A stretch of 64,000 nt of DNA, from sequence record OP352608; one strand, written 5' to 3'. The stretch is from Escherichia phage vB_EcoM_SP13. Made by a program: the position numbers and the translations under genes. Under the pieces are notes generated by a model that saw only the letters and a program-made list of their open reading frames with translations, was not told the DNA's origin and ran no database searches. Numbering within the stretch: position 1 is the stretch's first letter; each line of letters starts with the position of its first letter. This document shows positions 3,274 through 60,461 of the stretch, one piece after another.

Positions 3274-5649
3274 ATGAAAATTCTTGGCATAAAACTCTGG
3301 GAGAAGACGCGACCAGAAGCCGAACCAGCGGAGATGCCGCCAGGCGACCCATTGGCACCGTTTGAACGCCTTGAAAGGCGCGGCAGCGGTCAACGCTGGG
3401 AAAAGACTGAAAGCAATCGACCGACCTTTAAAACGGTTGATGACTTCCCTTTATATGAGCCTGATATTAACGGGGACGGTGTTGCAATCATCAAAGGTCG
3501 CTCAGTAGATTCAGCAACCGTATCCAAAAAAGTTATGGATAATGCCTTAAAGAACATCAGTTCAGAAGGGCAGGTGAATCCATACACAGTGCCTATTCAG
3601 TTGCAAAACTGGTACTTATCGCAATCATTTATCGGATATCAAGCTTGCGCCATCATCGCGCAGCACTGGCTAGTGAACAAGGCTTGTTCCATGGTAGGCC
3701 GCGATGCGGTCCGTAAAGGCTGGGAAGTCAAATCCAGTTCTGAGTCGGAATTGTCAGTACAGGCCAGCGAACGCTTAAAGCAAATTGATAAAGAATTTAA
3801 CATCAAAGAGCACTTAGTTGAAGCCGAACGATTCAAGAATATTTTTGGCATCCGCGTCATCATATTTGATGTGCGCAGTGATGACCCAGAATATTATAGC
3901 AAACCTTTTAACATCGATGGTGTGACAAAAGGGTCTTATAAGGGAATCATTCAGGTTGACCCTTATTGGATGATGCCATTCTTGACGTCTGAAAACACTG
4001 CAGACCCTGCGTCACAGCATTTCTATGATCCAGAATACTGGGTGATCAGCGGACAGCGTTATCATCGCAGCCACCTAATCATCTTGCGCAACGATGAGCC
4101 AGCTGATATTCTCAAGCCGACTTATATCTACGGCGGCATTCCTCTGACTCAGCAGATTTATGAACGTATCTATGCCGCTGAACGTACCGCTAACGAAGCG
4201 CCATTGCTGGCGATGTCTAAGCGTACAACCACGCTTCGGACCGACGTTGACAAGGCGATTGCCAATGAGCGGTCGTTTGCCGAACGTCTGATGATGTGGA
4301 TTAAGTACCGCGACAACTATGCAGTCAAAGTGCTTGGTCAGAAAGAAGAGATGGACCAGTTCGACATCAACTTGTCAGACTTCGACAGCATCATCATGAA
4401 CCAGTACCAGCTGGTGGCCGCAATCGCAAAAGTTCCGTCGACAAAACTGTTAGGGACGTCACCTAAAGGCTTTAACGCCACTGGTGAGTTCGAAATGGTC
4501 AGCTATCACGAAGAATTGGAGACTTGTCAACAGCACGATTTGACGAAGATTCTTGACCGCCACTATAAAATCCTTTTGAAGTCTGAAGGCGTGGAAGTCG
4601 ACGTTAAAGTGGCATGGGAGCCAGTTGGTTCACTTACTGCTACTCAGCTTGCAGAGATTAACGACAAACGAGCGAATACTGGCAAGACTCTCATTGATGC
4701 TGGCGTAATCTCCCCTGATGAAGAGCGCGACCGCATCAAGGACGACAAAAACAGCGGCTACAACCGTTTGCCGGAAGATGCAGCAGAAGAAACCCCAGGG
4801 ATGTCTCCAGAGAATATGGCACTGCTTGGCAAGTCTGCTGGTGAAGTTCTGCAAGGCAAGGCCGATATTGAACAGGCCAAAGCTGATGTTGTCAAGATGG
4901 GCGGCCAGTTCTATAGCGAGACTGGTATTATGCCGGAAGGTGCCGCGCGTGGTGAGTTGGCGGAAAACCCTGACAGGGCACCAGTTGAGATTAACATGGA
5001 TGATACCGATGACGAATCAAGCCATCACGTTGATGTCCTAACGCAACTGAAAGAAGGTCTGGAGGGTATTGCTGACTATTACCTTAAAGAAGGTCAGGAC
5101 GTGGATTTTGACCCTCAAAAAGATGCAAGGTCGGTGCAACCGTCTACGCTTCCAAGCGTAAAAGGAAATGTCGTGAACTTGCGACACAATGTAGGGAAGA
5201 TGGATGCTGCATCGCTGCCTAAGATGAAGTTGCACGGGATGATTCTTGGTATTGAGAATCCTCGCAACAGCATTCGCAGGGGTAACAGCCTTGATGGTGA
5301 ATGGGCAGTTAAGATGCCGCACCATTACGGATTTATCAAAGGCACCAAGGGCGCTGATGGTGATGAAGTCGACTGCTTTGTTGGACCAAACATGAAGTCG
5401 CCTAAAGTATTCATCATTAACCAAAATGATAATTATTCTGGCGAATTTGATGAACACAAGTGTATGCTTGGATTTGATTCAGCAGAAGAAGCGAAAGAAG
5501 CTTATCAGGCGTCATTTGGTAACGGTTGGAACGGATTTGACTCAATCCACGAATTGGATGTAAACTCATTCAAGGAGTGGTTGAAGGGTGATTGCTCTCA
5601 AGCATATGGAGCACTCAACAATCCTACTAATTCACCGAAGCAAGGTTGA
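3274..5649 (+). CDS. portal protein (putative) with C-terminal inorganic-pyrophosphatase-like domain
   Basis: Large ORF directly after terL; AGGTGG RBS 8 nt before ATG 3274; C-terminus carries YGFIKGTKGADGDEVDC, which fits the family I PPase signature D-[SGDN]-D-[PE]-[LIVMF]-D-[LIVMGAC]. Confidence 0.55.
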   Translation: MKILGIKLWEKTRPEAEPAEMPPGDPLAPFERLERRGSGQRWEKTESNRPTFKTVDDFPLYEPDINGDGVAIIKGRSVDSATVSKKVMDNALKNISSEGQVNPYTVPIQLQNWYLSQSFIGYQACAIIAQHWLVNKACSMVGRDAVRKGWEVKSSSESELSVQASERLKQIDKEFNIKEHLVEAERFKNIFGIRVIIFDVRSDDPEYYSKPFNIDGVTKGSYKGIIQVDPYWMMPFLTSENTADPASQHFYDPEYWVISGQRYHRSHLIILRNDEPADILKPTYIYGGIPLTQQIYERIYAAERTANEAPLLAMSKRTTTLRTDVDKAIANERSFAERLMMWIKYRDNYAVKVLGQKEEMDQFDINLSDFDSIIMNQYQLVAAIAKVPSTKLLGTSPKGFNATGEFEMVSYHEELETCQQHDLTKILDRHYKILLKSEGVEVDVKVAWEPVGSLTATQLAEINDKRANTGKTLIDAGVISPDEERDRIKDDKNSGYNRLPEDAAEETPGMSPENMALLGKSAGEVLQGKADIEQAKADVVKMGGQFYSETGIMPEGAARGELAENPDRAPVEINMDDTDDESSHHVDVLTQLKEGLEGIADYYLKEGQDVDFDPQKDARSVQPSTLPSVKGNVVNLRHNVGKMDAASLPKMKLHGMILGIENPRNSIRRGNSLDGEWAVKMPHHYGFIKGTKGADGDEVDCFVGPNMKSPKVFIINQNDNYSGEFDEHKCMLGFDSAEEAKEAYQASFGNGWNGFDSIHELDVNSFKEWLKGDCSQAYGALNNPTNSPKQG

Positions 5650-5650
5650 T

Positions 5651-6502
5651 ATGGCTTTTAAAGCTTCGAAAAAACGTGAACGCCGCTCACCCGATAGAAT
5701 CGGGCGCGGCAGTCCGATAATCCCATCCAACGCAATCGCGATGGCCTATCGTCGTGAGATGAAAGGTCTTTGCTATGCGATGATTGACGACTATCAAGAA
5801 GGAATTGCTGAGTGGCTTGAAAAGAAGCAGGTGAAAAAATTCTTTGCGCAAGACTCTGCTGATTCAACTTTTCAAACCTTGATGAAGCGACTGCAACTGA
5901 AATGGGCAAAAGCTTTCGCCCGTGTCGGGTCAAAGATTGCCGCAGATTTCATCAAGTCAGTTGAAAAGGGTGCCACTTCTGCTACATTTGCAAGTCTTAA
6001 ATCTGCAGGAATAGAAGCGCCAAAAGCCACATATAATAAATTCGTTGAGAACACTCTTAAAACAAGCGAGACGTTCAACACGACTTTAGTGACTAAGGTT
6101 GGCGAGGATATTCACAACAGGGTGTACGAAGCGGTGATGCTTTCGCTGACTTCGCCAGACCCAGCGCAACAAGGCACGTCCGGTATTCAGGCGGCATTAA
6201 GGAATGTAAAACACTTCTCTGCAAAGCGCGTAGACCTTATTGCAAAAGACCAAACGAGCAAACTTTATTGCGTATTAAGTGATGAAAGGATGCGACAGAA
6301 TGGAGTCGAGGAATTTGAGTGGGCGCATTCAGGAGCAGGCAAAGAGCCGCGAATATCGCATGAGCATGTCGATGGAATGAGATTCAAGCTTGATGACAAA
6401 CGCTTATGGGAAGTAGGTGGAGAACTTAAGTTCAAAAAGGGTGACATCGGTCCTCCTGGATGGGCGATACACTGCAAGTGCAGGAAAATACCAATTATCT
6501 GA
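5651..6502 (+). CDS. head morphogenesis protein (MuF/SPP1 gp7-like, putative)
   Basis: Position immediately after portal, size about 280 aa; assignment mainly by synteny. Confidence 0.45.
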   Translation: MAFKASKKRERRSPDRIGRGSPIIPSNAIAMAYRREMKGLCYAMIDDYQEGIAEWLEKKQVKKFFAQDSADSTFQTLMKRLQLKWAKAFARVGSKIAADFIKSVEKGATSATFASLKSAGIEAPKATYNKFVENTLKTSETFNTTLVTKVGEDIHNRVYEAVMLSLTSPDPAQQGTSGIQAALRNVKHFSAKRVDLIAKDQTSKLYCVLSDERMRQNGVEEFEWAHSGAGKEPRISHEHVDGMRFKLDDKRLWEVGGELKFKKGDIGPPGWAIHCKCRKIPII

Positions 6503-6509
6503 GGTCATT

Positions 6510-7430
6510 ATGACGATACCAATCAACACATTCCCTCTATCTGGACAAACTCCAGTCTTGCCTGCGGTGTATGCTAATGGCTTGGCAATTGTCTCAGAAT
6601 TCACTTCTGATAAAAACTTGATTGTTCCACTGAGCCCGCCGCTTTCATCAGGGTATAACTCAGTAGGCCAGTTCTTTATGATTGGCAATGATGGCGATTC
6701 GACCAGCAAGCCTAATCTGACATTGTCTGTACCTAAGATGAACATCACCGACGTTCAAACTGGCTTGACTGCATCAACAATCACCATTGCTTTTGGAGAA
6801 GCAGTGATTATAGGAATGGAGTCTGGAGGGTCCAAGAATGCTGTCGCCGTTAAGGTAGTCAAATCCAGCGACAACCAATACACTTTACCAGCTGCGACGG
6901 CTTCCGTTCTCGGCGGCGTCAAAATAGGAAGCGGAATAAGCGTCGCAGGTGACGGTACAATTAGCGTAACTCAATACTCATTGCCGATTGCGTCAGCATC
7001 TACTTTAGGCGGCGTAAAGGTCGGTACAACTCTATCAATTGATGGTTCCGGTGTGCTTAACGCAGCAGCAAGCACCGTCCAGAATGCCACGAACAGTGTT
7101 AGCAATCCTCCAACCACTTTGGTTAATCTGGCAACCTTAAACCTTCCTGCAGGAAAGTGGCTTGTGACGGCAAGCCAATTGACCGTTGCAACTGCAGGCA
7201 TTCAAGCGAATACCGGAATCACTGTAAAATTATCAACAAGCAATTCAGATATTACGGATGATGCATTTACCATGTCAGCGGGTATTCGGGCTTCAGGACG
7301 TTTTGGCGGTAACGTCCCAACAAAAATGATTACTCTTGCCGCGCCTGGTAATGTGTATCTAAACTATCAGTGCACCGATGCGTTAACATCTACCGTTTAC
7401 GGACAGATCACCGCAATTAAGCTGAACTAA
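6510..7430 (+). CDS. structural protein with tandem fibre-like repeats
   Basis: GAGGT RBS; tandem repeat LPAATASVLGGVKIGSGISVAGDGTISV / LPIASASTLGGVKVGTTLSIDGSGVLN resembling phage tail-fibre repeats. Confidence 0.45.
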   Translation: MTIPINTFPLSGQTPVLPAVYANGLAIVSEFTSDKNLIVPLSPPLSSGYNSVGQFFMIGNDGDSTSKPNLTLSVPKMNITDVQTGLTASTITIAFGEAVIIGMESGGSKNAVAVKVVKSSDNQYTLPAATASVLGGVKIGSGISVAGDGTISVTQYSLPIASASTLGGVKVGTTLSIDGSGVLNAAASTVQNATNSVSNPPTTLVNLATLNLPAGKWLVTASQLTVATAGIQANTGITVKLSTSNSDITDDAFTMSAGIRASGRFGGNVPTKMITLAAPGNVYLNYQCTDALTSTVYGQITAIKLN

Positions 7431-7440
7431 AGAGGAAGTT

Positions 7441-7578
7441 ATGCAAAAGATTATTCAGTCACGTTATGTTAAAGTGCGAAATATTAATTGCAACTCTTTG
7501 CTTTCTTGGAAATGGGCTGTTTATGACTCGATGTTGATTGGCGTTTTAGTGGCAGGAGTGCTATTTAATATTCACTGA
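7441..7578 (+). CDS. small hydrophobic protein (45 aa)
   Basis: AGAGGA RBS 5 nt before ATG; C-terminal hydrophobic stretch MLIGVLVAGVLF; below the ORF-track size cutoff. Confidence 0.3.
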   Translation: MQKIIQSRYVKVRNINCNSLLSWKWAVYDSMLIGVLVAGVLFNIH

Positions 7579-7619
7579 ATTCATCGGCAAAGGATTGCCG
7601 CGAGTTTTATACGTATAAT

Positions 7620-7890
7620 GACGTATCATCCGTATCAAGTAAGTTGTTGTTTTCAAAAGAATCTTACGGATGATACGGATGATACGCGTTGCCGCCGTAC
7701 TATATAGGAATTCAAATAAATTAATTTAAAATTATATATCTAATTTAATTTTATTTTTTTATAAACTCTTATATATATGAAAAGTATCCGTATCATCCGT
7801 ATCATCCGTAGCACACCAGTGATAGCGCGGCTTATACACCGATACGGATAAAAATACGCCTCATTTTATCCGTATCATCCGTATCACACT
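7620..7890. repeat. palindromic 9-bp repeat element A (ATCCGTATC / GATACGGAT units around an AT-rich core)
   Basis: Units at 7622-7636, 7665-7686 (inverted), 7786-7810 (three tandem copies), 7841-7850 (inverted), 7867-7886; AT-rich core 7700-7785. Confidence 0.8.
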
Positions 7891-7943
7891 AATAAAGGCG
7901 CGGCTATATCGGTTGTTATACATATTCAAACCATAATTATTGT

Positions 7944-7972
7944 TTGCCTAAGTTTTTTTCATTAGATATAAT
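7944..7972 (+). promoter_or_regulatory. sigma70-like promoter TTGCCT-N17-TATAAT
   Basis: -35 at 7944-7949, -10 at 7967-7972, followed by GAGGGTGG RBS and ATG 8002. Confidence 0.5.
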
Positions 7973-8001
7973 ACACAATACTTATTTGAGGGTGGATGCG
8001 A

Positions 8002-9417
8002 ATGCAAACGGCACGCGAAATTGACAAAAATGGATTCTTGACGATTATGGGTTGTCCGATTTCGTCATTTGGCATTTTTGATTATTCTGCTGGTCAAGTT
8101 GGTCTTGATGGTGATCCGAATCGCATCGTAAAAGTCTATCGCCCTGAGTCAGCGGTGAAAGACCCCGAAGCGATAGATTCATTCAAAAATATCCCTTTCA
8201 TCGACAATCACGAAATGCTTTCTGGATTTGAAGGTGATGAGGATAACACAGCACCCGAAGAGTATGGCGTTGATGGCGTTCTGACTGGCAATGTTTATTA
8301 TGACAAGCCATGGATGCGCGGCGACCTTAAAGTGTTTAGCCGTCGTCTGAAGAAGGCCATTGATTCTGGAAAGGTTGACTTGTCTTTGGGCTATGACTGT
8401 GAATTCATCATACAGTCTGGAGAGTTTGACGGGCAGCCGTATGAAGTGGTGCAGACAACTCTTCGCGGCAACCACATTGCTCTCGTGGACGTTGGTCGAG
8501 TACCAGGTGCACGGGTGCTGGATGGTCGTTGCTTTGACCATCTTTGTTTGACGACTGTAACACCATCCAACGAGGATTTAGACATGCCAAAACCGTTAAA
8601 AGGTAAAGCGCGTGATAATGCTGTTGAACAGCTGAAATCACTGATCCCTGCGCTCGAACAATTTCTGAACGAAGAGAGTACTGAAGCTGCTCATCAGGAC
8701 GAAGTTGAAGTGAAAGCAGAAGAGAAGGACTCAACCGAAAATCGTGAAGAAGTAATGGTTGATCCAGAAGTCAAGGCAGAAGCAGAAGAAACCCCAGAAG
8801 GTGAAGAGAAGTTTGAAGTTGAAACTGAATCTCACGCTGGCGGCGAACTTCCGCAATTGATCAGCCAAATCGAAGCACTTATTGCAAAACTGAAAGGTGG
8901 CGCGGTAGGTGATGAAGAAGAAGTTGAAGCCGAAGTCAAAGACGAAGAAGAAGTTGAAGTCAAGGCTGAAGATGTATCACCTTGCGACAAAGCTGAAGAT
9001 GTGGTTAGCGGCCTGCAAAACAGCAACGTAAAGGGGGCTTCGGTCGAAAAAGATGACAAACCGACAAAAGCGGCGAAAGCGTCGCCAGGTCCAGCAAAAG
9101 GGGAACACTCAATGGCATCTGATTCAGCAGTTGCTGCTTTCTACGCTGATTCTGCTCGTAAGAATAGCCTCTACCAGCGCCTGTCTAAAGTTGTTGGTGC
9201 CTTTGATCATGCAACTATGGACTCCAAGTCCGTAGCGAAATATGGCGCTAAAAAGTTAGGCTTGAAGTGCGTTGATGGTGCTGAGTTTGACGTGGTGGAT
9301 AATTATCTGCGCGGCGTTGAGCACGGTCAGAAACAGCGTGTAGTCGCAAAACAAAAGGCCGCTGCGGATTCTGCAGCAACTGACGAAGCATTTGAAGCTT
9401 GGTTGAAAGGGGAATAA
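8002..9417 (+). CDS. prohead protease / scaffold fusion protein (putative)
   Basis: N-terminal about 190 aa resemble phage prohead protease-like domains (RGNHIALVDVGR), followed by a long acidic E/K-rich coiled-coil region typical of scaffolds; lies before the capsid gene. Confidence 0.5.
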   Translation: MQTAREIDKNGFLTIMGCPISSFGIFDYSAGQVGLDGDPNRIVKVYRPESAVKDPEAIDSFKNIPFIDNHEMLSGFEGDEDNTAPEEYGVDGVLTGNVYYDKPWMRGDLKVFSRRLKKAIDSGKVDLSLGYDCEFIIQSGEFDGQPYEVVQTTLRGNHIALVDVGRVPGARVLDGRCFDHLCLTTVTPSNEDLDMPKPLKGKARDNAVEQLKSLIPALEQFLNEESTEAAHQDEVEVKAEEKDSTENREEVMVDPEVKAEAEETPEGEEKFEVETESHAGGELPQLISQIEALIAKLKGGAVGDEEEVEAEVKDEEEVEVKAEDVSPCDKAEDVVSGLQNSNVKGASVEKDDKPTKAAKASPGPAKGEHSMASDSAVAAFYADSARKNSLYQRLSKVVGAFDHATMDSKSVAKYGAKKLGLKCVDGAEFDVVDNYLRGVEHGQKQRVVAKQKAAADSAATDEAFEAWLKGE

Positions 9418-9419
9418 AC

Positions 9420-10037
9420 ATGACTTTCCAAACTAGTGTAGGCCGTCAATATACAACTGGCTTTCCTGGCGACATCGTTCGCGACGGCCCACAGCGTGGG
9501 AAGCCAGGCCGAATCGTTAGCGCCAACGACGGTGCAAACGTAAACGCCATCAGCCGTGTGTTTGGTTTTAAGGCTGACGTGTCATTAATGGGTACTGGCC
9601 AGACCAAAACCTTGGGCGCGCAGGACTTTGAAGTTGAACTGGGCGGCACCAATTACTATGGCATCCTTGGCAACAGCAAGCGTTACGCTCTGTATGGCAA
9701 CTCTACTGGTCCTTTGGGTGCCAGCATGGTTCTGCCTCAATATAGCGAAGGCGAGTTCTACGATATGTGCACGGGCCTCGTAGTTGAAGTGTTCAACCCA
9801 AGCACCAGTCCGCAGACGCTGAACTACGGCGACCTGCTCGCTTATGTACCTAAAGGCATTTCCAGCGGTAACAACCCGAACAACTTGCCTATCGGTGCAA
9901 TTATCGCCTATACTGGCTCACTGCCAACTGGCATGGTTGCCATTCCAGGCGGTATCGTGATTGACCCGACTGCTATTGCCCTTTCCGGCCCAAGCGTCCA
10001 GTCTTCCACTTATACCATTGTACAATTGACTCGTTAA
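9420..10037 (+). CDS. hypothetical head protein (possible decoration protein)
   Basis: ORF between scaffold and major capsid gene; RBS present; no motif recognised. Confidence 0.35.
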   Translation: MTFQTSVGRQYTTGFPGDIVRDGPQRGKPGRIVSANDGANVNAISRVFGFKADVSLMGTGQTKTLGAQDFEVELGGTNYYGILGNSKRYALYGNSTGPLGASMVLPQYSEGEFYDMCTGLVVEVFNPSTSPQTLNYGDLLAYVPKGISSGNNPNNLPIGAIIAYTGSLPTGMVAIPGGIVIDPTAIALSGPSVQSSTYTIVQLTR

Positions 10038-10051
10038 TAGGCAGGTGAATA

Positions 10052-11191
10052 ATGACTCGCATTAGCCAAACACACTCTCGCCTCCCAGCGAGCAAGGTGC
10101 GCCCTTTTGATATGCAATCTGTTACCGACGCGGCTGTTTCCCAGCTTGCTCGTATCGGTATTGTGTTTGATTCCGCGATTGTGCGTGATCAGATTGAGCA
10201 CTTAAACCGTGCAGGCGCTTTCCGCGTAGGTGACGCCGCGTTCACTGCACCGCAGACTACTCCGTCAATCCCGACCCCGCTGCAGTTCCTGCAGCAGTGG
10301 CTGCCTGGCTTCGTCAAAATCATGACCGCTGCTCGTAAAATCGACGAGCTGGTTGGTATTGATACCGTTGGTCAGTGGGAAGATGCAGAAATCGTTCAGG
10401 GTATCGTTGAACCAGCTGGCACCGCAGTTGAATATGGTGATTTCACCTCTATTCCTCTGGCAAGCTGGAACGTAAACTTTGAACGTCGTTCTATCGTTCG
10501 TGGCGAAATGGGCATGGCAGTTGGTATGCTGGAAGAAGGCCGCGCGTCTGCTATGCGTCTGAACTCCGCAGAAACCAAGCGCCAGCAGGCTGCTGTATCT
10601 CTGGAAATCATGCGTAACGCAATCGGCTTCTATGGCTGGTACAACGGGAACAACCGCACATTCGGCTTCCTGAATGATCCAAACCTGCCAGCGGCGATGA
10701 CTTCCAACACCACTTCCGGCTGGGCTACTGCGACTTTCCAACAGGTAACTGCAGACATCCGTTTGATGGTTCGTCAAATTCGTGTGAACTCTCAGGACCA
10801 GATTGATCCAGAGAAAGTTGACATGACTCTGGCGCTGCCGACTAACTCTATCGATTGGCTGTCCAACACCACTGACTTCGGTATTTCTGTACGTGACTGG
10901 ATCACCCAGACCTATCCGAAGATGAAGATCAAATCTGCACCGGAACTCAACGGCGCACTTGGCAGTGACCCGACTTTCTTGAACGTGGCATACCTGTACG
11001 CTGATCACATCGATTCCTCAATCGATGGTTCAAGCGATGATGGTTCCGTATTCAGTCAGCTGGTTCAAACCAAGTTCATGACTCTGGGCGTTGAAAAGCG
11101 TGCTAAGAGCTACGTTGAAGACTACGCAAACGCAACAGCAGGCGTTCTGCTCAAGCGTCCGTTCGCAGTCGTCCGTATGACTGGCATTTAA
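10052..11191 (+). CDS. major capsid protein
   Basis: 379 aa, AGGTGA RBS, position after protease/scaffold; sequence resembles the DUF2184-type capsid family; followed by a stem-loop. Confidence 0.7.
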
Positions 11192-12241: not shown

Positions 12242-12624
12242 GGATTCCTGGCGTAAACTTATATCGAGTTGCGACAAAGGTTATCGGTCGCCAACCGATT
12301 CAATATTACATGTACAAGGGGCGCACCCTTGATAAGATGCGCAACTATGTCACTACATATGAAGAACCAATCACCTTACTTGCTTCGGTGCAGGCTGTAC
12401 TTCGAAACCAATACGTTGAGCTTGGTTTAGAGCTTCAAAAGAACTATGTCAAAATCTGGGTGGACAAAGACATTGTTGACCTTGACCGCGACGCTTCCGG
12501 CGACTATTTTGTGTTTGGTGGCAAAACATACAAGATGGAAGATGAAACGACATGGTTTGACCAAGATGGTTGGACGTCTTGCCTTGCCGTGGAAGTAAAA
12601 CAAAGCTTTCCAGTGTCTACTTGA
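12238..12624 (+). CDS. hypothetical head-tail protein
   Basis: GTG start overlapping previous stop; synteny. Confidence 0.35.
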   Translation: MRIPGVNLYRVATKVIGRQPIQYYMYKGRTLDKMRNYVTTYEEPITLLASVQAVLRNQYVELGLELQKNYVKIWVDKDIVDLDRDASGDYFVFGGKTYKMEDETTWFDQDGWTSCLAVEVKQSFPVST

Positions 12625-12631
12625 GGTGTAT

Positions 12632-13207
12632 ATGACAGATGTCGACCTGATTGACATGCTGGCAACGCGAATTGAAGAAGGTCTGGCGGCGTATAGTCGT
12701 GCAGACCTTTCTGCTGTTCCGGTCCAGAAAAAATACCAACCGACTCAACAGGGCATTCCGACTGGTGATCAGATTTGGTTTAACCTTTTATTCTCAGTCC
12801 CATTCGGTTGGTCAATGAGAAAGAATGAATTTGTCAATGATGAATCTCAATTCGTTAATGGCAAATTTAAAGATATTGAAGATCAGATATACGCAACACG
12901 TTTTCAAATTAGCGGCTTATTTCCAGAAGTTCCTGGCAATCCAGAAAAGCCTACGGCTAATGACGTTTTGACTTATTTAGCAAGATTCATAACCCACAAG
13001 GCTAATTTGAGGGATTGGTTTAAAAGGCATCAAGCTTCAGTATATAGAGTCGACATGAACAACAATGAAAAGTTCTATGACGACATGTCTCAGTTTGAAT
13101 CGTTTCCTTCTTTTGATTTGGTAATCCTTCACAGAAACGCAATTTCAATTGACACGCCTGCTGTTGCAAGAGCTGTTAATAACGATTTAGGCGATATTCC
13201 GGTGTGA
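12632..13207 (+). CDS. hypothetical head-tail protein
   Basis: ORF with GAGGTG upstream; synteny. Confidence 0.35.
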   Translation: MTDVDLIDMLATRIEEGLAAYSRADLSAVPVQKKYQPTQQGIPTGDQIWFNLLFSVPFGWSMRKNEFVNDESQFVNGKFKDIEDQIYATRFQISGLFPEVPGNPEKPTANDVLTYLARFITHKANLRDWFKRHQASVYRVDMNNNEKFYDDMSQFESFPSFDLVILHRNAISIDTPAVARAVNNDLGDIPV

Positions 13208-13208
13208 T

Positions 13209-13694
13209 ATGACAAAATCAAAAATGATAGAAAAACAGATAAAGGCGCTTCAATCGATGAAGGGTCTTACTGTTGAAGCAGGATGGTTTGATTCTACCAG
13301 ATACCCTTCAGAAACTGGTGGGGAAGGCATGTTGGTGTCAGAAGTCGCGCGACTGAATGAATTTGGTCACATAGCCGTTTTGAACTTTGGGCAAGGGCCA
13401 GTCAGGGTAGAAGTGCCACCCAGACCATTCATGAGATATGCCTATGAATTATTCGTTAGTGAGCGCAGTGAAATAGAGAATAAAATTGCTAAAAAGATTT
13501 TTTCCGGTAAAATAGACGCTAGACAGGCATTAGGTCAGATTGGGCTTGCGATGGAAGCAAAGATTGTCGAATCAATTAAAAACGGACCTTGGCAAAGAAA
13601 CGCCAGATATACCGTGCGTGTGAAAGGATTCGACAAACCTTTAATTCACAGCAGCCTTATGTGGCAATCTGTCAACAGCCAAGTCATTAAATAA
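13209..13694 (+). CDS. hypothetical tail protein
   Basis: ORF tightly packed before sheath gene. Confidence 0.35.
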   Translation: MTKSKMIEKQIKALQSMKGLTVEAGWFDSTRYPSETGGEGMLVSEVARLNEFGHIAVLNFGQGPVRVEVPPRPFMRYAYELFVSERSEIENKIAKKIFSGKIDARQALGQIGLAMEAKIVESIKNGPWQRNARYTVRVKGFDKPLIHSSLMWQSVNSQVIK

Positions 13695-13706
13695 GAGGAC
13701 ACCGAC

Positions 13707-15245
13707 GTGATCAGTCAATCTCGTTATATTAAAATTGTATCAGGGGTCGGAGCAGGCGCGGCTGTTGCAGTTCGCAAACTGTCGCTTCGCATCATGACTT
13801 CCAATACAGTTCTGCCGCCAGGCATTGTAGCAGAATTTTCAACTGCTGATGCCGTTGGATCATATTTCGGTTTTTCTTCCGAAGAATACAAGCGTGCAGC
13901 ACTGTATTTCGGATTCATCAGCAAGCAAATCAACTCGCCTGATTCAATCAGCTTTTCTCGCGTTGTATCCACGGCGATTCCTGCAATGGTTATCGGCGAC
14001 ACTGAGCCTAAAACGCTTGCTACTTTCCAGGCATTCACTGGCGCTATCTTAAGCATCACTTATGACGGCACAGACTACCTGACTGACGCCATCAACCTTT
14101 CAGCGGCAACAAGTCTTGCCAACGTAGCGGAACTTTTGGAAACGGCAATCAACACCAAGTTTGCAGCAGAAGGTGGCACGTCGGTGCCTGCACTTGCTGA
14201 TGCAGAAGTGTATTGGAATGCCAACACCCAGCAGTTCACTTTGGAAGCCGCTCCGTCGACCGCTGGTGCTGGAAACCTTTCGATTAACGTCACAGGTCAA
14301 CCGACAGACCCATCTCAGGCGCTTGGTTGGACGACTACTGGCACCGTTACGGTTGCTGGACAGGGTGTAGCAAGTCCGGTAGAAGCCATCGCGGCATCTG
14401 TGGAGATTTCCAACAACTTTGGCTCATTCCTTTTCGCTGGAGCAGACCGAACGCTGGAAGAAATCACAGCCGTTGCAGCTTGGACTCACTCGCAGAACAA
14501 CATGTACATGTATCTGTTCTCGACTGCATTCGCCAACATCGGCTCATACTATACCGCGTTGAAAGGTTACTCAGGCGTTGGTATGATGATCCGTGCAACT
14601 AACCTCGCGAATGATTACATCGACCAGGCGCCTGCTGAAATTCTTGCGGCGACAAACTATAACACTGTAAATGCAACTCAAAACTACATGTATTATCAGT
14701 TTGAAACGCGAAATGTAACCGTATCGACTGATTCACGCGCAGATACTGCTGATCAAAACCGTGCAAACTATATCGGTGCGACTCAGCAAGCTGGTCAAAC
14801 TCTCGCGTTCTTCCAGCGTGGTGTTCTGATGGGCGGGTCTACCGCAGCAGTTGACATGAACACTTATGCCAACGAGATGTGGCTTAAATCTGCTATCACT
14901 TCTCAGCTGTTCAGCATGTTCTTGAATCTTGGTCGCGTGCCTGCAAACGAAGAAGGCAAAGCGACTGTCCAAGCCATGATTCAAGTTGCTGTTGACAATG
15001 CGAAGGTTAACGGCACCATCTCTGTCGGTAAGGCGCTGACGGAAATTCAGAAACAGTACATCACGCAAACCTCCGGTGACAACACTGCTTGGCGGCAGGT
15101 TGAGACTATCGGTTATTGGTTGACTGTCGATTTTGACACTGAAACCACTTCCGATAACCGCACCGAATACTATGCAACATACACGCTAATCTACTCTAAA
15201 GATGATGCTGTGCGTCGCGTTGAAGGTCGTGACGTTCTTATTTAA
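13707..15245 (+). CDS. tail sheath protein (putative)
   Basis: 512-aa protein immediately upstream of tube gene; size and position typical of contractile sheath; GTG start. Confidence 0.55.
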   Translation: MISQSRYIKIVSGVGAGAAVAVRKLSLRIMTSNTVLPPGIVAEFSTADAVGSYFGFSSEEYKRAALYFGFISKQINSPDSISFSRVVSTAIPAMVIGDTEPKTLATFQAFTGAILSITYDGTDYLTDAINLSAATSLANVAELLETAINTKFAAEGGTSVPALADAEVYWNANTQQFTLEAAPSTAGAGNLSINVTGQPTDPSQALGWTTTGTVTVAGQGVASPVEAIAASVEISNNFGSFLFAGADRTLEEITAVAAWTHSQNNMYMYLFSTAFANIGSYYTALKGYSGVGMMIRATNLANDYIDQAPAEILAATNYNTVNATQNYMYYQFETRNVTVSTDSRADTADQNRANYIGATQQAGQTLAFFQRGVLMGGSTAAVDMNTYANEMWLKSAITSQLFSMFLNLGRVPANEEGKATVQAMIQVAVDNAKVNGTISVGKALTEIQKQYITQTSGDNTAWRQVETIGYWLTVDFDTETTSDNRTEYYATYTLIYSKDDAVRRVEGRDVLI

Positions 15246-24358: not shown

Positions 24359-24364
24359 GGAACT

Positions 24365-27103
24365 ATGCAAAAGTTTGACACAAACCTGTTGCAAAACCTT
24401 AAGTGGATGCAGAACAATGCGCCAAACATTACATCTTTGGTGCAAAAGAAAAGTGACTGGTATGAAAGATACCAAGATCAGTTTTGGACTGACTGGTACA
24501 ATAACATTTTTAACATTGACACTTGTGATGCAATGGGCATTTATATTTGGTGCGACATTCTTTGCATACCAAGAGACTTTGTGGACTTAAGCAATTATGA
24601 GCACAACTGGGCGTTTGGACCGACGCGCGACAACTTTGAAGGTGCGGACAACATCGGCGGCAACTTCTTTGGTGCTGGCGGGAAGGTTGTAAAGAATATC
24701 GAAGAAGCGCGCATACTTCTTAAGCTTCGTTATCTGACGCTTACAAGTGATGGCCGCATCGAAAGTATCAATCGCATGCTTAAGTGGATTTTCAACCGTG
24801 GAGAGGCTTGGGATTACTCTTCATCACGCTACGCATATGTGACCGACAATACTCAAGGCGCAGTGTCTTCGTCTGAATCAACCAATGGCTCATTCCTTCT
24901 GTACGACTGGCAAGGGTCAACTGAGATTCAGCACGATTATAAGCAGATACTTTTAAGCCATGGCAACAACGCCGGACTGACCATCAGCGGAGTATCAGGC
25001 ACCGTGTCACGGATGGCGCATCCAGATTGGTACTCATGGGGGAATGGCTCCGGCACAGGTCTTGTCGGCGGCGACACCAGACAGTATGGCGGCCCTGATT
25101 ACTATGGACAGTTGTGTGGTGATTACCCAGGCGAGGCCATAGAGAATTTTGCCAACGCAGTAAGGGTAGTCAAGACTGCTTCAAGCGGTGAGCCTGTGTA
25201 TTCTTTGGCAGATAATCCAAGCGCCCAATCCATTGCGCTTCCTTCGCAGGCTGGCGTTAACGTTTGTTATAGCTTCTACATAAAGGTGCTTTCTGAAAAT
25301 GTCGCTTCTGTTTCGGTTACAGAGAATAGTGATGCATCTAGTAATGGAAAGTTGTTTGACCCAGTCACTGGGCAGTTCAACTTGGACCCGTATTTGAGCT
25401 ATTTCATCACAGGCAAATTCGATGGAGTAAGAAGGGAATCAAGCCGTGGTGGCATCAAAGCAATCGGCGGCGATTGGTATCGAATCTGGATTGTAGAGCA
25501 GACGGCAACCGCTGCGTCTGGAGTAAGTACCAGCTTTTCAATAGAGTTGAAGGCGACTGCCGCTGGATCAACTCAAACTCGTGAATTGCCTGAAGGGTCT
25601 GATGCACTTCTTTTTGGATACTCGATTTGCGTCTGCGACCCTGTTCAGAATCCAAATGGACCTGAGCCTTATTTTTATGGAACGCAAAACCCTCCTTCTG
25701 ACGGAACAGCAATACTGTCTGTAACGGCGGGAACGCTCAACAACATCTCCTGTGCAAACGGACCGCTGACGACAAGAAACGGTGTGGTTGGCGAGTCATT
25801 CATGCAACCTGGCTCATCACTTGCATACTCTGGCTCAATCGGCGGCTACCCGTACCCAGGGAACGCCACATTGATTGCAGAGACTGACGGCATCAGACGC
25901 TCATGGAACGTTAGCAGGCTTGATGGAGTACCGCCGCCGCCGACCGCTGACTATTACATGGAATACGTCATCGGACCTTATTTCGCCAACAACCTGTCAG
26001 ACAACTTTAAGACGCTAGTTGGCGACAGGGATGAAGGATTCTTGCCAGCAAATGCCGGAATACGCTGGCAGCTTTACCAAGAAGTCGCAGACTTATCTGA
26101 TATTGATTTGACTGTCAGCAACATAACAGACACGCGAGTAGGATTTGAAACGGAAGGTGTTGCTTGGATTAACACTGACGGTATCATCAGAGTTGGCGGC
26201 ATTAACGAGTGGCCGCTGAACAACTTCAACGGTGTGATACGCCAGCTTGAATCTTTGAAAGGTGTAAACCAGGTCATCGACGGCGCGCTTGTCAACGACT
26301 ATTCAATCTCAAAAGCATCAAGAGATGACTTTGGTCGTGAAATCCCACGTGCCGCAATCACTAACTACTGGAGATACACACAGCCCAATGACGGCACATC
26401 TTTTGGCAATATCATTGAGGATGGCGCAAACACGGTCACAGCGACGCCAATCAGCGGTGTACCCAACCAGTTCCCATCATTCAAGCTTTCCGCTACAATA
26501 GGGACTGTGCCAGCGTCCGGTTATGCACGCGCTGTACTTGCTACTAAATACACTGGCACCCTGACTGGTCCTTTATCATTCATTGCGGTAGTCAAAAACA
26601 ACACGGTTAACGGTCAAAAACTTTTTGTAACTGTACCGGATGGGATGGGTGGCTATATCCCTAAATTCTACAACATAGGCGCAGGTGATTTGCAACGTAT
26701 CGAAATTGACCTTGCCGCTGAGATTGTTGAAGGCGCTACCTGGGATGGATCAACAGGCGGCATCAGCATCGGTTTGATATCAGGGAAAGACTTGCCGACC
26801 GAAGTTGGTACGACTCTTGAACTTGATATTTTAAGCTTGATGCTTGTGTCTGGTAATACGATGAATGCGCTTGCAATTTCAACAAGCGAAGATTTCGCAA
26901 AGAAGACTGCGACTTCTATATACATCAAAAACCCAGGATCACTTGCCACTGGAGTTCAATTGATTGCTTCTAATGGTGATGTTGTAGCAACAGTAAACTT
27001 TCCGAGAAGTGCTGCTGGTGGTTATGTTTCAAGCATGAACATAACTGACTTAACTGGTGATTGGGCATCAACCCTTTTATCAAAAATTAAATACATCGTG
27101 TAG
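24365..27103 (+). CDS. baseplate wedge / tail fibre-associated protein
   Basis: 912-aa protein between baseplate J and tail fibre genes. Confidence 0.4.
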   Translation: MQKFDTNLLQNLKWMQNNAPNITSLVQKKSDWYERYQDQFWTDWYNNIFNIDTCDAMGIYIWCDILCIPRDFVDLSNYEHNWAFGPTRDNFEGADNIGGNFFGAGGKVVKNIEEARILLKLRYLTLTSDGRIESINRMLKWIFNRGEAWDYSSSRYAYVTDNTQGAVSSSESTNGSFLLYDWQGSTEIQHDYKQILLSHGNNAGLTISGVSGTVSRMAHPDWYSWGNGSGTGLVGGDTRQYGGPDYYGQLCGDYPGEAIENFANAVRVVKTASSGEPVYSLADNPSAQSIALPSQAGVNVCYSFYIKVLSENVASVSVTENSDASSNGKLFDPVTGQFNLDPYLSYFITGKFDGVRRESSRGGIKAIGGDWYRIWIVEQTATAASGVSTSFSIELKATAAGSTQTRELPEGSDALLFGYSICVCDPVQNPNGPEPYFYGTQNPPSDGTAILSVTAGTLNNISCANGPLTTRNGVVGESFMQPGSSLAYSGSIGGYPYPGNATLIAETDGIRRSWNVSRLDGVPPPPTADYYMEYVIGPYFANNLSDNFKTLVGDRDEGFLPANAGIRWQLYQEVADLSDIDLTVSNITDTRVGFETEGVAWINTDGIIRVGGINEWPLNNFNGVIRQLESLKGVNQVIDGALVNDYSISKASRDDFGREIPRAAITNYWRYTQPNDGTSFGNIIEDGANTVTATPISGVPNQFPSFKLSATIGTVPASGYARAVLATKYTGTLTGPLSFIAVVKNNTVNGQKLFVTVPDGMGGYIPKFYNIGAGDLQRIEIDLAAEIVEGATWDGSTGGISIGLISGKDLPTEVGTTLELDILSLMLVSGNTMNALAISTSEDFAKKTATSIYIKNPGSLATGVQLIASNGDVVATVNFPRSAAGGYVSSMNITDLTGDWASTLLSKIKYIV

Positions 27104-27113
27104 AGGAACGGCA

Positions 27114-28898
27114 ATGCCAACACTTATTAACAGACCTTTCGCGCAAAGCGGTGATGTATCCGTGGTGCCGGATGCAAGTCCAAGCGGTTATGTGAACTTC
27201 CAGCGCGGCTACACCCCTGACTATGCACTTGCGCTGGAAGCCGGAAACGTCGCCGCGAAAGCAGTTGAACGTGAGTCGATGAACTGGTTGCTGAATCTGA
27301 TCACCGACAACCTTATGTTCATCCAGGACCACGGCGCTCAACAGTATTTCTCGTCTGACTTGAAGCCAGATGGATACCCGAAAAATGCCATCGTTGTCAG
27401 CAACTCTGGCACCCCTTCAGCGCCTGAATGGCGCATTTTCCAGAGTGTGGTAGACGGCAACACCAGCGCAGTCCCAGCTAACGGCGAAACGGAATCTTGG
27501 CAGGAATTGACGCTGCCTAGCGAAGCGAGAAAATATATTCCTATGCCTGCTGGCGGCGATGCGCAAAACCCGTATTTTGTTCGCGGACTGATTTCAAACT
27601 TTGTGGACTTTGATAATATCACGACTTCCACAACTATTGTCATTCAATCTGATGCCGTTGCCGCTCTCTGCTCTAACATCCCGAACGCGGTTGGTGCGAC
27701 GAAGGTTGCAGGTCGTCTCCAGGTTTGCGCTTGGCAGGTTGATGCGCAGACTTTCGCCCTGCAACAATACACGTCAATGAACGGATATGTTTTCACCCGC
27801 TCTTATACTTCTGGTGCTTGGAGTGCTTGGATTCAAAATGCAACTGTTCAAGACGTGCAAATCGGCACGCCGAATCTTGCATCAGGTAAAGGCGCACAAG
27901 ATATAATCCTTACCGTTCCGGCAGGTTATGCATGGCCGCCGTCAGCAGGTAGTCGCCTGACAATTGTCAATGATGTAACGACTACCGGACCTGTTACCGT
28001 GACCATTGGTGCAAACAAAGTTGCAGTCCTTGGATTCGACGGCGGCGAGCTGCCAGCAGGGTCCATCGTCGGTCTTCTTCCTTTTACTATTATTTATGAC
28101 GGCACCGTTTGGCGTCTTCTTCAAGCATTCGGCGCGGCGCAAATCGGTGTCGATGCTAGTGAGCCGCAACAGTTTGTTACAAAGCGCCAACTCGATGCTT
28201 TGGCTGCGAAATTGATAACTATGGGTGATGTATTCGAAGTCGGTGAGACTCGATTCTTGACTAATGGCACTAACCCAAATACTAAACTGGGCGCTTATGG
28301 ACAGGTTTGGACCAGATTGCCTGACAACATGGTCATCAGGACATCTGGCACAGCAAGAAACGGCCTTGCCACTGGCGGCGCGGACTCTGTTACTCTTACC
28401 GCCGCCATGCTTCCTCTGCACAATCACAGCGTGAACATAACTACGCGACAGAGCGGTCCATGGTCCAATACCACTGGAGGCGCAGGCAACCATAACCACA
28501 CAGGCGATACCAGTCAAAACGGCGCTCACGTGCACGGAATGGATGCTGCTGGTAATCATCATCACGACAGTGGCTGGGGTGAGGCTTATGCAGACCAGGC
28601 TAGATACGGGGTGTATGATGGCACGCACAATAACCTTGGAAGTGCAAGGTCTGATTATGACAACTACAAATACAACACCTCGACTAACGGTAGCCACGTC
28701 CACAATATTCAATCTTCTGGGTCACACACCCATGGGTTGAATATAAATTTCGCTGGCAATCACAGCCATAGCTATACCCTTCCCGCTCACACTCACGATG
28801 TGGTCGGTAACACTGGCAATGCAGGGCAGTCCGTCCCAACGGCTGTTTCAACTCTGCCGCGATATGTCGTCTTGAACGGCTGGTACAGAAGCGCATAA
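27114..28898 (+). CDS. tail fibre protein with HxH repeats
   Basis: GAGGAA RBS; C-terminal region has many HxH motifs (NHNHTG, AHVHG, NHHHD, SHVHN, SHTHG, NHSHS, AHTHD) as in metal-binding fibre tips. Confidence 0.55.
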   Translation: MPTLINRPFAQSGDVSVVPDASPSGYVNFQRGYTPDYALALEAGNVAAKAVERESMNWLLNLITDNLMFIQDHGAQQYFSSDLKPDGYPKNAIVVSNSGTPSAPEWRIFQSVVDGNTSAVPANGETESWQELTLPSEARKYIPMPAGGDAQNPYFVRGLISNFVDFDNITTSTTIVIQSDAVAALCSNIPNAVGATKVAGRLQVCAWQVDAQTFALQQYTSMNGYVFTRSYTSGAWSAWIQNATVQDVQIGTPNLASGKGAQDIILTVPAGYAWPPSAGSRLTIVNDVTTTGPVTVTIGANKVAVLGFDGGELPAGSIVGLLPFTIIYDGTVWRLLQAFGAAQIGVDASEPQQFVTKRQLDALAAKLITMGDVFEVGETRFLTNGTNPNTKLGAYGQVWTRLPDNMVIRTSGTARNGLATGGADSVTLTAAMLPLHNHSVNITTRQSGPWSNTTGGAGNHNHTGDTSQNGAHVHGMDAAGNHHHDSGWGEAYADQARYGVYDGTHNNLGSARSDYDNYKYNTSTNGSHVHNIQSSGSHTHGLNINFAGNHSHSYTLPAHTHDVVGNTGNAGQSVPTAVSTLPRYVVLNGWYRSA

Positions 28899-59869: not shown

Positions 59870-60240
59870 TTTGATACGCCTAAAATACGGTTAAAAATTA
59901 AGCGTATCATGGCTGCAGGCCGCGCCGTTCCTGGATTCCTCTTTTCCAAATTGGTACACCCTTACGTCATGATACGTCATGGTTTTTTATCCGTATCAGT
60001 GTACAACCCTTGCCGCGCCTGGCTTGTACATTAATCTTACGGATGATACGGATAAAACTGAGCATCGTTATATATAGAATTCGAAAAATTAATTAACTCC
60101 AATTTTAAAAACATTTATATTAATTTTTTTCATATCCTCATACTTATGTTAATTTATATATTTAACGTATCATCCGTAAGATATAAGTAAAAACAAAGAC
60201 TTGCGGCAATACGGATGATACGTCATGATACGCTTCAACC
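59870..60240. repeat. palindromic 9-bp repeat element B (homolog of element A)
   Basis: Units at 59965-59980, 59990-59998, 60038-60054 (inverted), 60167-60179, 60211-60234; AT-rich core 60065-60165 resembles 7700-7785. Confidence 0.8.
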
Positions 60241-60461
60241 AGCCAGCAGCGGCTAAGTCGTTGATTTGCATAACAAGCGGCAAAAGGGATGGATTTCTTT
60301 TATACGTATCAAACAGTACACCACGCACCACGGTCCGTTATCCATTCAGCAATATGATTTGTGTACGTTTATAGCCATAATGAACATCAATCTGCACTTG
60401 AATATAATGTCCATCCATTGTATAATTCACACTATTAATTTGCACTATGGGATTTTGCACT

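Follow-up and report, generated by a model that had tools for sequence, protein, structure and literature searches.

The subject of this analysis is a gene at positions 6510-7430 of a 64,000-nucleotide stretch of Escherichia phage vB_EcoM_SP13 (sequence record OP352608; this whole stretch is called the window below), whose product we read (with a probability of roughly 0.6 for the reading as a whole) as an accessory virion fibre of the anchor, shaft and knob type, with display on the head as the favoured site. Between positions 5600 and 8000 the window has 100% identity to Escherichia phage F13 (OP745617, genus Wifcevirus); with 27 further Wifcevirus records the identity is 89-98%. Counterparts of the gene are F13_0043, Bas99_0006, vB_Eco4M-7_38 and ECML-117 gp36, and the open reading frame (ORF) at 6510-7430 is a real, conserved gene. 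A longer, GTG-started ORF (6417-7430) was rejected, as it overlaps the preceding gene for a Mu F-like protein (MuF), is without a Shine-Dalgarno sequence and differs from the start in the GenBank records inspected. The MuF gene ends with a stop codon at 6500-6502, which leaves 7 nt before the ATG of the fibre gene, so that the two genes are tightly coupled. A first, sequence-only reading of the window had placed the gene between head morphogenesis and protease genes, and these are indeed its neighbours:

6510..7430, + strand: fibre gene; ATG at 6510, stop codon at 7428-7430, 306 amino acids, one exact ORF
6501..6504, + strand: Shine-Dalgarno sequence GAGG, 5 nt before the ATG at 6510, read directly from the sequence
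6510..6875, + strand: N-terminal anchor domain, residues 1-122, all-beta, modelled with an XD2/T4 gp10-like fold
6876..6971, + strand: repeat 1, QYTLPAATASVLGGVKIGSGISVAGDGTISVT, residues 123-154, a unit of 32 amino acids
6972..7067, + strand: repeat 2, QYSLPIASASTLGGVKVGTTLSIDGSGVLNAA, residues 155-186, a unit of 32 amino acids
7068..7427, + strand: C-terminal knob domain, residues 187-306, predicted TNF/C1q-like jelly roll
5651..6502, + strand: Mu F-like head-morphogenesis (minor head) gene, Pfam PF04233 and phrog_324, equivalent to F13_0042
7996..9417, + strand: head maturation protease-scaffold gene of the DUF2213/Pa193_gp24 type, by Pfam and PHROG

As modelled, the protein is made of three modules: an anchor, a shaft and a knob. 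An AlphaFold2 (AF2) model of the whole fibre protein, built as a single chain from a shallow alignment, gives a confident all-beta N-terminal domain (residues 1-118, predicted local distance difference test score (pLDDT) ~88) and an all-beta C-terminal domain (residues 187-306, pLDDT ~75-85), with a repeat region of low confidence between them, which is no surprise where an oligomeric shaft is modelled from a single chain. Assignment of secondary structure by DSSP finds strands throughout the model and no helix of four or more residues, which for the low-confidence repeat region is suggestive. Tandem repeats had been claimed at the outset, with the peptide LPAATASVLGGVKIGSGISVAGDGTISV and a second copy of it quoted, and both copies are present: repeat 1 aligned with repeat 2 scores 91, compared with 24.5 +/- 4.8 for shuffled sequences, and none of 2000 shuffles reached that score. 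The number of copies varies among full-length homologs, with two in P0004, three in P0002 and four in P0003.

It is through this region that the protein connects with known fibre families. Pfam PF11133 (Phage_head_fibr) is matched at 28.4 bits, above its gathering cutoff of 24.6 (E 1.4e-6), in a single stretch of ~40 residues that sets residues 108-147 on profile positions 213-252 of 277, and several PHROG families annotated as head fibre or tail fibre are matched too; the sequence-only proposal of a fibre-type protein is thereby upheld. In the Protein Data Bank (PDB), the head fibre gp8.5 of phage phi29 aligns over the motif region only (query residues 93-147 with gp8.5 200-254, E 0.007), and this match and that to PF11133 both end within repeat 1, at residue 147. 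The motif behind the family matches, Y-x-LPxATxxxLGGVK, is a widespread one: 944 proteins share the repeat at E <= 1e-3, most of them covering only ~20% of the query and many carrying 5-10 copies. Some of these LGGVK-repeat proteins also bear T4 gp9/gp10-like domains, and in Ralstonia phage phiRSL1 the protein that contains the motif has the annotation "long tail fibre subunit". Considering that its distribution includes tail fibres, we take the motif as the mark of a fibre, and not of a head fibre specifically.

For the C-terminal domain the evidence is structural. A Foldseek search of the PDB with the whole model found jelly rolls of the TNF/C1q type at probability 1.0 (E 1e-4 to 1e-3, target template modelling score 0.4-0.6), namely the N-terminal lectin domain of Burkholderia BC2L-C, Photorhabdus PLTL, Bacillus ExsFA/BxpB, EDA-A1 and the tip of Bdellovibrio Bd2734; the best whole-model match was the tail fibre gp24 of cyanophage A4. 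A search of BFVD matched C1q-domain, BclB-domain and collagen-like proteins as well as tail fibres. Aligned residue ranges of the TNF-like matches are not reported by the search, and these matches are assigned to the C-terminal domain because the model of the N-terminal domain alone lists no TNF-like proteins. The predicted jelly roll would thus be shared with lectins and tips of the TNF/C1q type (BC2L-C-N, PLTL, ExsFA/BxpB, Bd2734), whose sequences are only 8-19% identical to that of the fibre protein. At the level of sequence, phrog_11393, a tail-fibre C-terminus family, matches the domain weakly, a profile search of the PDB with the domain alignment gave nothing significant, and a search of IMG/VR for related loci with the same alignment found Wifcevirus contigs only. 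The knob is also where the protein varies: 15 of the 21 sites that are variable within the genus fall in it, i.e. 12.5% of knob sites compared with 3% elsewhere.

The N-terminal domain (residues 1-122) matches no Pfam or PHROG family, and its model resembles, in structure searches, the XD2/T4 gp10-like attachment domains of tailspikes and tail fibres. The matches, listed with bare figures, are the Solidus gp83 tailspike (8.6), N-terminal fragments of CBA120 TSP4 (8.2 and 7.7), the proximal subunit of the KP1 long tail fibre (8.0), KP1 gp9 (7.5) and the Pa223 capsid spike (6.2). The likeness does not extend to sequence: CBA120 TSP4, A4 gp24, KP1 gp9 and the long tail fibre (LTF) proximal subunit are only 4-16% identical to it; PF07880 (T4_gp9_10) matches neither the fibre protein nor 17 homologs of its N-terminal domain at E up to 1, and a profile search of the PDB with the domain alignment gave nothing significant, with UvrB and PrgB at E > 0.05 across the N- and C-domain searches. 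We also considered an origin in common with the anchor of the T-shaped tail fibre of these phages and rejected it (HHalign probability 0.4%, unrelated). An exhaustive profile search found ~15 full-domain members among 1.84 billion representative proteins, in which the domain stands almost always at the N-terminus of otherwise different proteins, P0132 and P0122 for example. Pfam scans of the distant homologs of the domain found no families. BcepF1.122 of Burkholderia phage BcepF1, a protein of 583 amino acids with a collagen-like GXY stretch, carries a homologous N-terminal domain (HHalign probability 98%, E 1.9e-13). Defined by the ~120-amino-acid domain together with the slot between MuF and protease genes, this is an undescribed family of MuF-adjacent fibre anchors. 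The distant members P0122, P0125, P0127 and P0130 start with a signal-peptide-like or lipobox-like sequence, which is odd for virion fibres.

The slot itself is well conserved. The fibre gene is found in all 28 Wifcevirus records, at 95-98% amino-acid identity, and the full-length homologs P0002, P0003 and P0004 (51-57% identity) occupy the same slot in uncultured 72-kb phages. Proteins with the N-terminal domain are encoded directly after MuF in Wifcevirus, in the related loci L005, L006 and L011 and in BcepF1, where gene 122 lies between MuF and the protease gene; P0122 likewise follows MuF directly in an E217-like head module. In L008/L009 the N-domain protein P0132 is encoded by the second gene of the slot, after a fibre-like gene of 1073 amino acids. 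In L008, an uncultured E217-like phage, the slot (3716-9388) holds three surface-protein-like genes: the one of 1073 amino acids, with a weak YadA_head match, P0132, and one of 402 amino acids with a lipoprotein-type signal peptide. An exception is the short homolog P0070, found upstream of the terminase gene instead, and Pseudomonas phage PB1 (Pbunavirus) has no fibre gene in the slot, only two small ORFs. From these comparisons the accessory slot follows a conserved order of portal, MuF, X, small ORF, long intergenic region and protease. BcepF1.122 and the metagenomic proteins P0122 and P0132 share with the fibre protein a homologous N-terminal domain and this slot (P0132 one gene further on), whereas their distal parts are wholly different, being collagen-like GXY stretches, other repeat types or other C-terminal domains. 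A shared anchor with differing distal parts suggests that the anchor travels with the head module of this lineage and that the distal parts are swapped. Within the genus the fibre is the most variable protein of the head module (96.4% identity compared with 97.6-100% for its neighbours), and towards the more distant L006 phage it falls to 57%, with the adjoining head proteins at 73-90%; on these alignments it is the fastest-evolving protein of the head module.

Far from being absent from virions, the fibre protein has an ortholog among the best-detected proteins of purified phage. Necel et al. (PMC7048862) analysed vB_Eco4M-7 and ECML-117, purified on caesium chloride (CsCl) gradients, by liquid chromatography-tandem mass spectrometry (LC-MS/MS). 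The equivalent protein of the first phage, vB_Eco4M-7_38, which is 96.4% identical to the fibre protein and encoded at the equivalent position, was found with 8 peptides, 72.9% coverage, 775 peptide-spectrum matches (PSMs), an area of 3.6e10 and the third-highest protein score; ECML-117 gp36 was likewise detected in the purified phage (PMC7048862). Among the seven vB_Eco4M-7 proteins that we looked up in that study, its area is second only to that of the cement protein (603 PSMs, area 1.1e11), and is followed by those of the T-shaped tail fibre (2013 PSMs, 1.1e10), the second tail fibre (250 PSMs, 4.0e9), the sheath (358 PSMs, 2.4e9), the portal (559 PSMs, 2.0e9) and the major capsid protein (333 PSMs, 4.4e8). 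Such areas and PSMs are too noisy for copy numbers to be read from them, since the values for the major capsid protein (4.4e8) and the portal (2.0e9) are out of proportion to the copy numbers known for these proteins. On the published evidence, the fibre protein is abundant and particle-associated.

Two capsid appendages offer themselves for comparison. With the phi29 head fibre gp8.5 (PF11133; PDB 3QC7, 6QVK) the fibre protein shares the Y-x-LPxATxxxLGGVK motif, a similar size (280 amino acids for gp8.5, 306 here), an N-terminal anchor of ~110-120 residues followed by a fibrous part, and the look of a non-essential accessory protein encoded among head genes. There are differences: only ~40 of the 277 profile positions are matched, with profile positions 1-212 unaligned. 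The base of gp8.5 (residues 1-110), described as two small beta-barrels forming a pseudo-hexagonal trimer base, with a stalk of helix-turn-helix supercoil (PMC6542822), finds no match in the fibre protein, either with the PF11133 profile or with phmmer against 6QVK/3QC7, which aligns the motif region only. The helical stalk is not matched either, the AF2 model being all-strand, and the predicted TNF-like knob has no counterpart mentioned for gp8.5 in PMC6542822. With neither the gp8.5 base nor the helical stalk matched, the protein should not be classed with the gp8.5 family beyond the shared repeat motif. Comparable in layout is the capsid spike gp52 of Pseudomonas phage Pa223 (PDB 9NY6), a trimeric capsid appendage of ~295 amino acids proposed to aid adsorption, which likewise has an N-terminal attachment, a beta-rich middle and a C-terminal knob of TNF fold. 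Yet gp52 shows no sequence similarity to the fibre protein in a PDB sequence search; its anchor is an extended arm of 40 residues and not a globular domain of 120, its shaft is a triple beta-helix and not a set of LGGVK repeats, and Pa223 is a podovirus with a T=7 capsid. Cyanophage A4 gp24 resembles the whole model in its layout of N-terminal docking domain, stem and C-terminal binding domain; according to the A4 paper, its XD2-like N-terminal domain docks on the adaptor/nozzle junction of the tail. The XD2/gp10-like proteins as a group differ from the fibre protein in being encoded in tail modules, whereas the fibre gene has a fixed place in the head operon.

The remaining features of the head module in the window are these:

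995-2455: terminase gene
3274-5649: portal gene, fused to an InPase domain
7441..7578, + strand: ORF of 45 amino acids with a hydrophobic C-terminal half (Phobius transmembrane note in the GenBank record)
7585..7610, + strand: terminator-like GC hairpin (7585-7600) and T-run, a consensus match only
7579-7995: intergenic region of 417 nt between the 45-amino-acid ORF and the protease gene
7620..7890, no strand assigned: repeat element A, seven exact copies of the 9-mer ATCCGTATC in both orientations, intergenic and outside the fibre gene
9420-10037: cement protein gene, PF22758 and phrog_3645
10052-11191: major capsid protein gene

The 45-amino-acid ORF (7441-7578) matches no Pfam or PHROG family and is 100% conserved in the three Wifcevirus records compared (Bas99, vB_Eco4M-7, ECML-117). 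Small ORFs of 46-81 amino acids stand at the same position in PB1, BcepF1, L006 and L008. By its match to the consensus, the hairpin may end a block of portal, MuF, fibre and small ORF. Repeat element A had been described as following the fibre gene immediately, which needs correction: the small ORF and the hairpin intervene, and the arrays begin at ~7620. Chance would give 0.3 exact copies of ATCCGTATC over the whole window; the seven in the element flank a core of 90% A+T (7700-7785), and the intergenic region also holds a sigma-70-like promoter match (7944-7972). A second copy of the element, of the same layout, lies ~52 kb away at 59950-60250, beside unrelated genes. Other E217-like phages have a gap of the same architecture in the same position before the protease gene, with a motif that is lineage-specific:

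L006, 9344-9614: ATCCGTATC, as in the window
L005, 9413-9686: GCGGATAA
BcepF1 (L019), 24364-24660: CCTTAGTTAC
PB1 (L013, no fibre gene), 4708-4937: inverted repeats of 19 nt and 16 nt

This pattern suggests an ancestral regulatory region, perhaps for promoter control or an origin, with a co-evolving phage DNA-binding protein.

How might such a fibre work? The gene product would be a structural accessory fibre of the virion, most probably a homotrimer, held to the particle by its conserved N-terminal beta domain (residues 1-122). The two LPxATxxxLGGVK repeats of 32 amino acids would form a short beta-rich shaft, its length set by the copy number (2-4 among homologs), and the TNF/C1q-like knob would be the distal, ligand-binding end, probably binding surface carbohydrates weakly and reversibly; phages so equipped could be kept near cells or polymers until the true tail fibres engage. 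The fibre reading as such is right, and a sticky accessory fibre is what the protein very probably is; that it is carried by the virion, at whichever site, we regard as highly likely. It may sit on the head or on the neck or tail. We favour display on the head, i.e. on the capsid surface or the head-proximal neck, because in E217-like myoviruses this slot is filled by different fibres that share one anchor and can be exchanged; the gene's constant place in the head operon, phi29 gp8.5 and the Pa223 spike as precedents, and the high mass spectrometry signal speak for the same site, to which, taken by itself, we would give even odds. Several observations weigh against this reading. The closest anchor folds (CBA120 TSP4 XD, the KP1 LTF proximal subunit and gp9, Solidus, A4 gp24) belong to tailspike, tail-fibre and baseplate proteins that dock on the tail, the baseplate or other spikes, as documented for A4 gp24, and the repeat region is modelled with low confidence as a monomer. 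Mass spectrometric abundance is a crude guide, with the major capsid protein showing the lowest area of the seven looked up, and the sample also held non-structural proteins such as a helicase. Gene position, too, is weak evidence in a genus that encodes its T-shaped tail fibre outside the tail module as well. Capsid attachment in particular is plausible but unproven, given an anchor fold that points as much to the neck or tail. Of the earlier suggestion of a capsid-attached fibre or decoration protein, the fibre therefore stands and the capsid attachment is not established, the PF11133 match being to the repeat motif only; the cement family PF22758 (E217 gp24/Pam3 gp6) is not matched by the fibre protein and has its own, separate gene. 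Neither the BASEL nor the Korf paper, searched on this point, mentions a head fibre, a whisker or a collar for Wifcevirus.

The strongest alternative is a side fibre attached to the tail or neck, a third receptor-binding or adhesion fibre merely encoded in the head operon, whose XD2/gp10-like N-terminal domain would dock on the baseplate, the head-to-tail adaptor region or another fibre. The best Foldseek match of the whole model, A4 gp24 with its domain binding the adaptor/nozzle junction, fits such a fibre, as do the weak match of the C-terminal domain to a tail-fibre PHROG and the precedent within Wifcevirus of one genuine tail fibre encoded away from the tail module. Several GenBank records name the protein tail protein, tail fibre or tail connector, but these names were assigned by automated annotation. 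The other way argues the synteny with portal, MuF and protease genes, which is strict across genera while the tail modules lie elsewhere; the fibre protein and the T-shaped tail fibre also lack homology in their N-terminal anchors, and the two sets of tail fibres that are all the BASEL study describes do not include the fibre protein. On balance we hold this side fibre to be rather unlikely, and give the baseplate or another tail site, as the location, about the same weight. Distance from the tail fibre locus, used earlier as an argument for the head, is real for the main tail-fibre genes (24365-28898, ~17 kb downstream) and carries little weight, because the gene for the T-shaped, dual receptor-binding-domain tail fibre, F13_0033, is outside the tail module as well. 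That gene (12508-14817 of the F13 record, 5509-7818 of L020) ends shortly before the window begins and is encoded on the opposite strand, upstream of the terminase gene and away from the tail module; structural gene position thus appears a poor guide to virion location in Wifcevirus. A non-structural head-assembly factor, or a contaminant of the preparation, would suit a gene of the morphogenesis operon that has MuF and the protease/scaffold gene as neighbours, and a sample that held some non-structural proteins. Very high coverage and PSM counts in CsCl-banded phage of two isolates, a clear fibre architecture of anchor, shaft and knob, and variation concentrated in the distal knob make this very improbable.

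At least as improbable, and largely refuted, is the idea that the gene is a recent moron which came in on a single mobile cassette along with palindromic repeat element A, a joint acquisition that the sequence-only reading had raised. The gene does adjoin a repeat-rich, A+T-rich element, and Pbunavirus is without it. However, the GC content of the fibre gene equals that of its neighbours, synteny is kept in relatives of 51-57% identity and in BcepF1, and an equivalent repeat-rich gap with its own lineage-specific motif precedes the protease gene in fibre-less PB1, in BcepF1 and in L005. The second copy of element A has no fibre gene nearby, and no transposase, integrase or target-site duplication was seen. 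Arrival of the gap element together with the fibre gene is thus not supported by these comparisons. Returning to the accessory fibre with head display, one could tentatively go further and posit that the N-terminal domain is a capsid- or head-docking module and the slot after MuF a plug-in site for exchangeable head adhesin fibres in E217-like myoviruses, although the odds are against this broader reading. If true, the fibres displayed would be of several types (LGGVK shaft with TNF-like lectin knob, collagen-like, YadA-like), and Wifcevirus, Bcepfunavirus and uncultured relatives would recognise surfaces by a second system on the head that does not depend on the tail fibres; in Pbunaviruses the slot fibre would have been lost or never gained.

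Wifceviruses are candidates for use against E. coli O157 and Shigella in biocontrol and therapy, and phages of the related Pbunavirus are in wide use against Pseudomonas. A surface fibre that is abundant, conserved and tipped with a lectin-like domain could influence adsorption, retention in mucus or biofilm, purification (through carry-over of lipopolysaccharide) and immunogenicity, and a conserved anchor with exchangeable distal modules may offer a handle for engineering displayed ligands. Current annotations are inconsistent, ranging over tail protein, tail fibre, tail connector, head fibre and hypothetical protein. The name "head fiber protein" in a few records and the detection in virions as an "unknown protein" were already known; what is new is limited to the description of the protein in three modules, an anchor domain not described before, and the slot after MuF as a conserved site with exchangeable content. 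This is an incremental result of annotation and comparative genomics on a fairly ordinary kind of phage protein, and not a new biological principle.

Two further observations concern the wider window. The portal ORF (3274-5649) carries its InPase domain at the C-terminus (PF18823, E 4e-46, residues ~660-782); the same fusion is present in the related loci L005, L006, L007 and L011, and among PHROG matches the InPase domain also occurs within very large virion or ejection-type proteins. Position 1 of the window corresponds to about 15239 of the linear, 68,786-bp F13 record (OP745617), so that the 64-kb window overruns the end of that record, which points to a permuted or wrapped version of the genome as its source.

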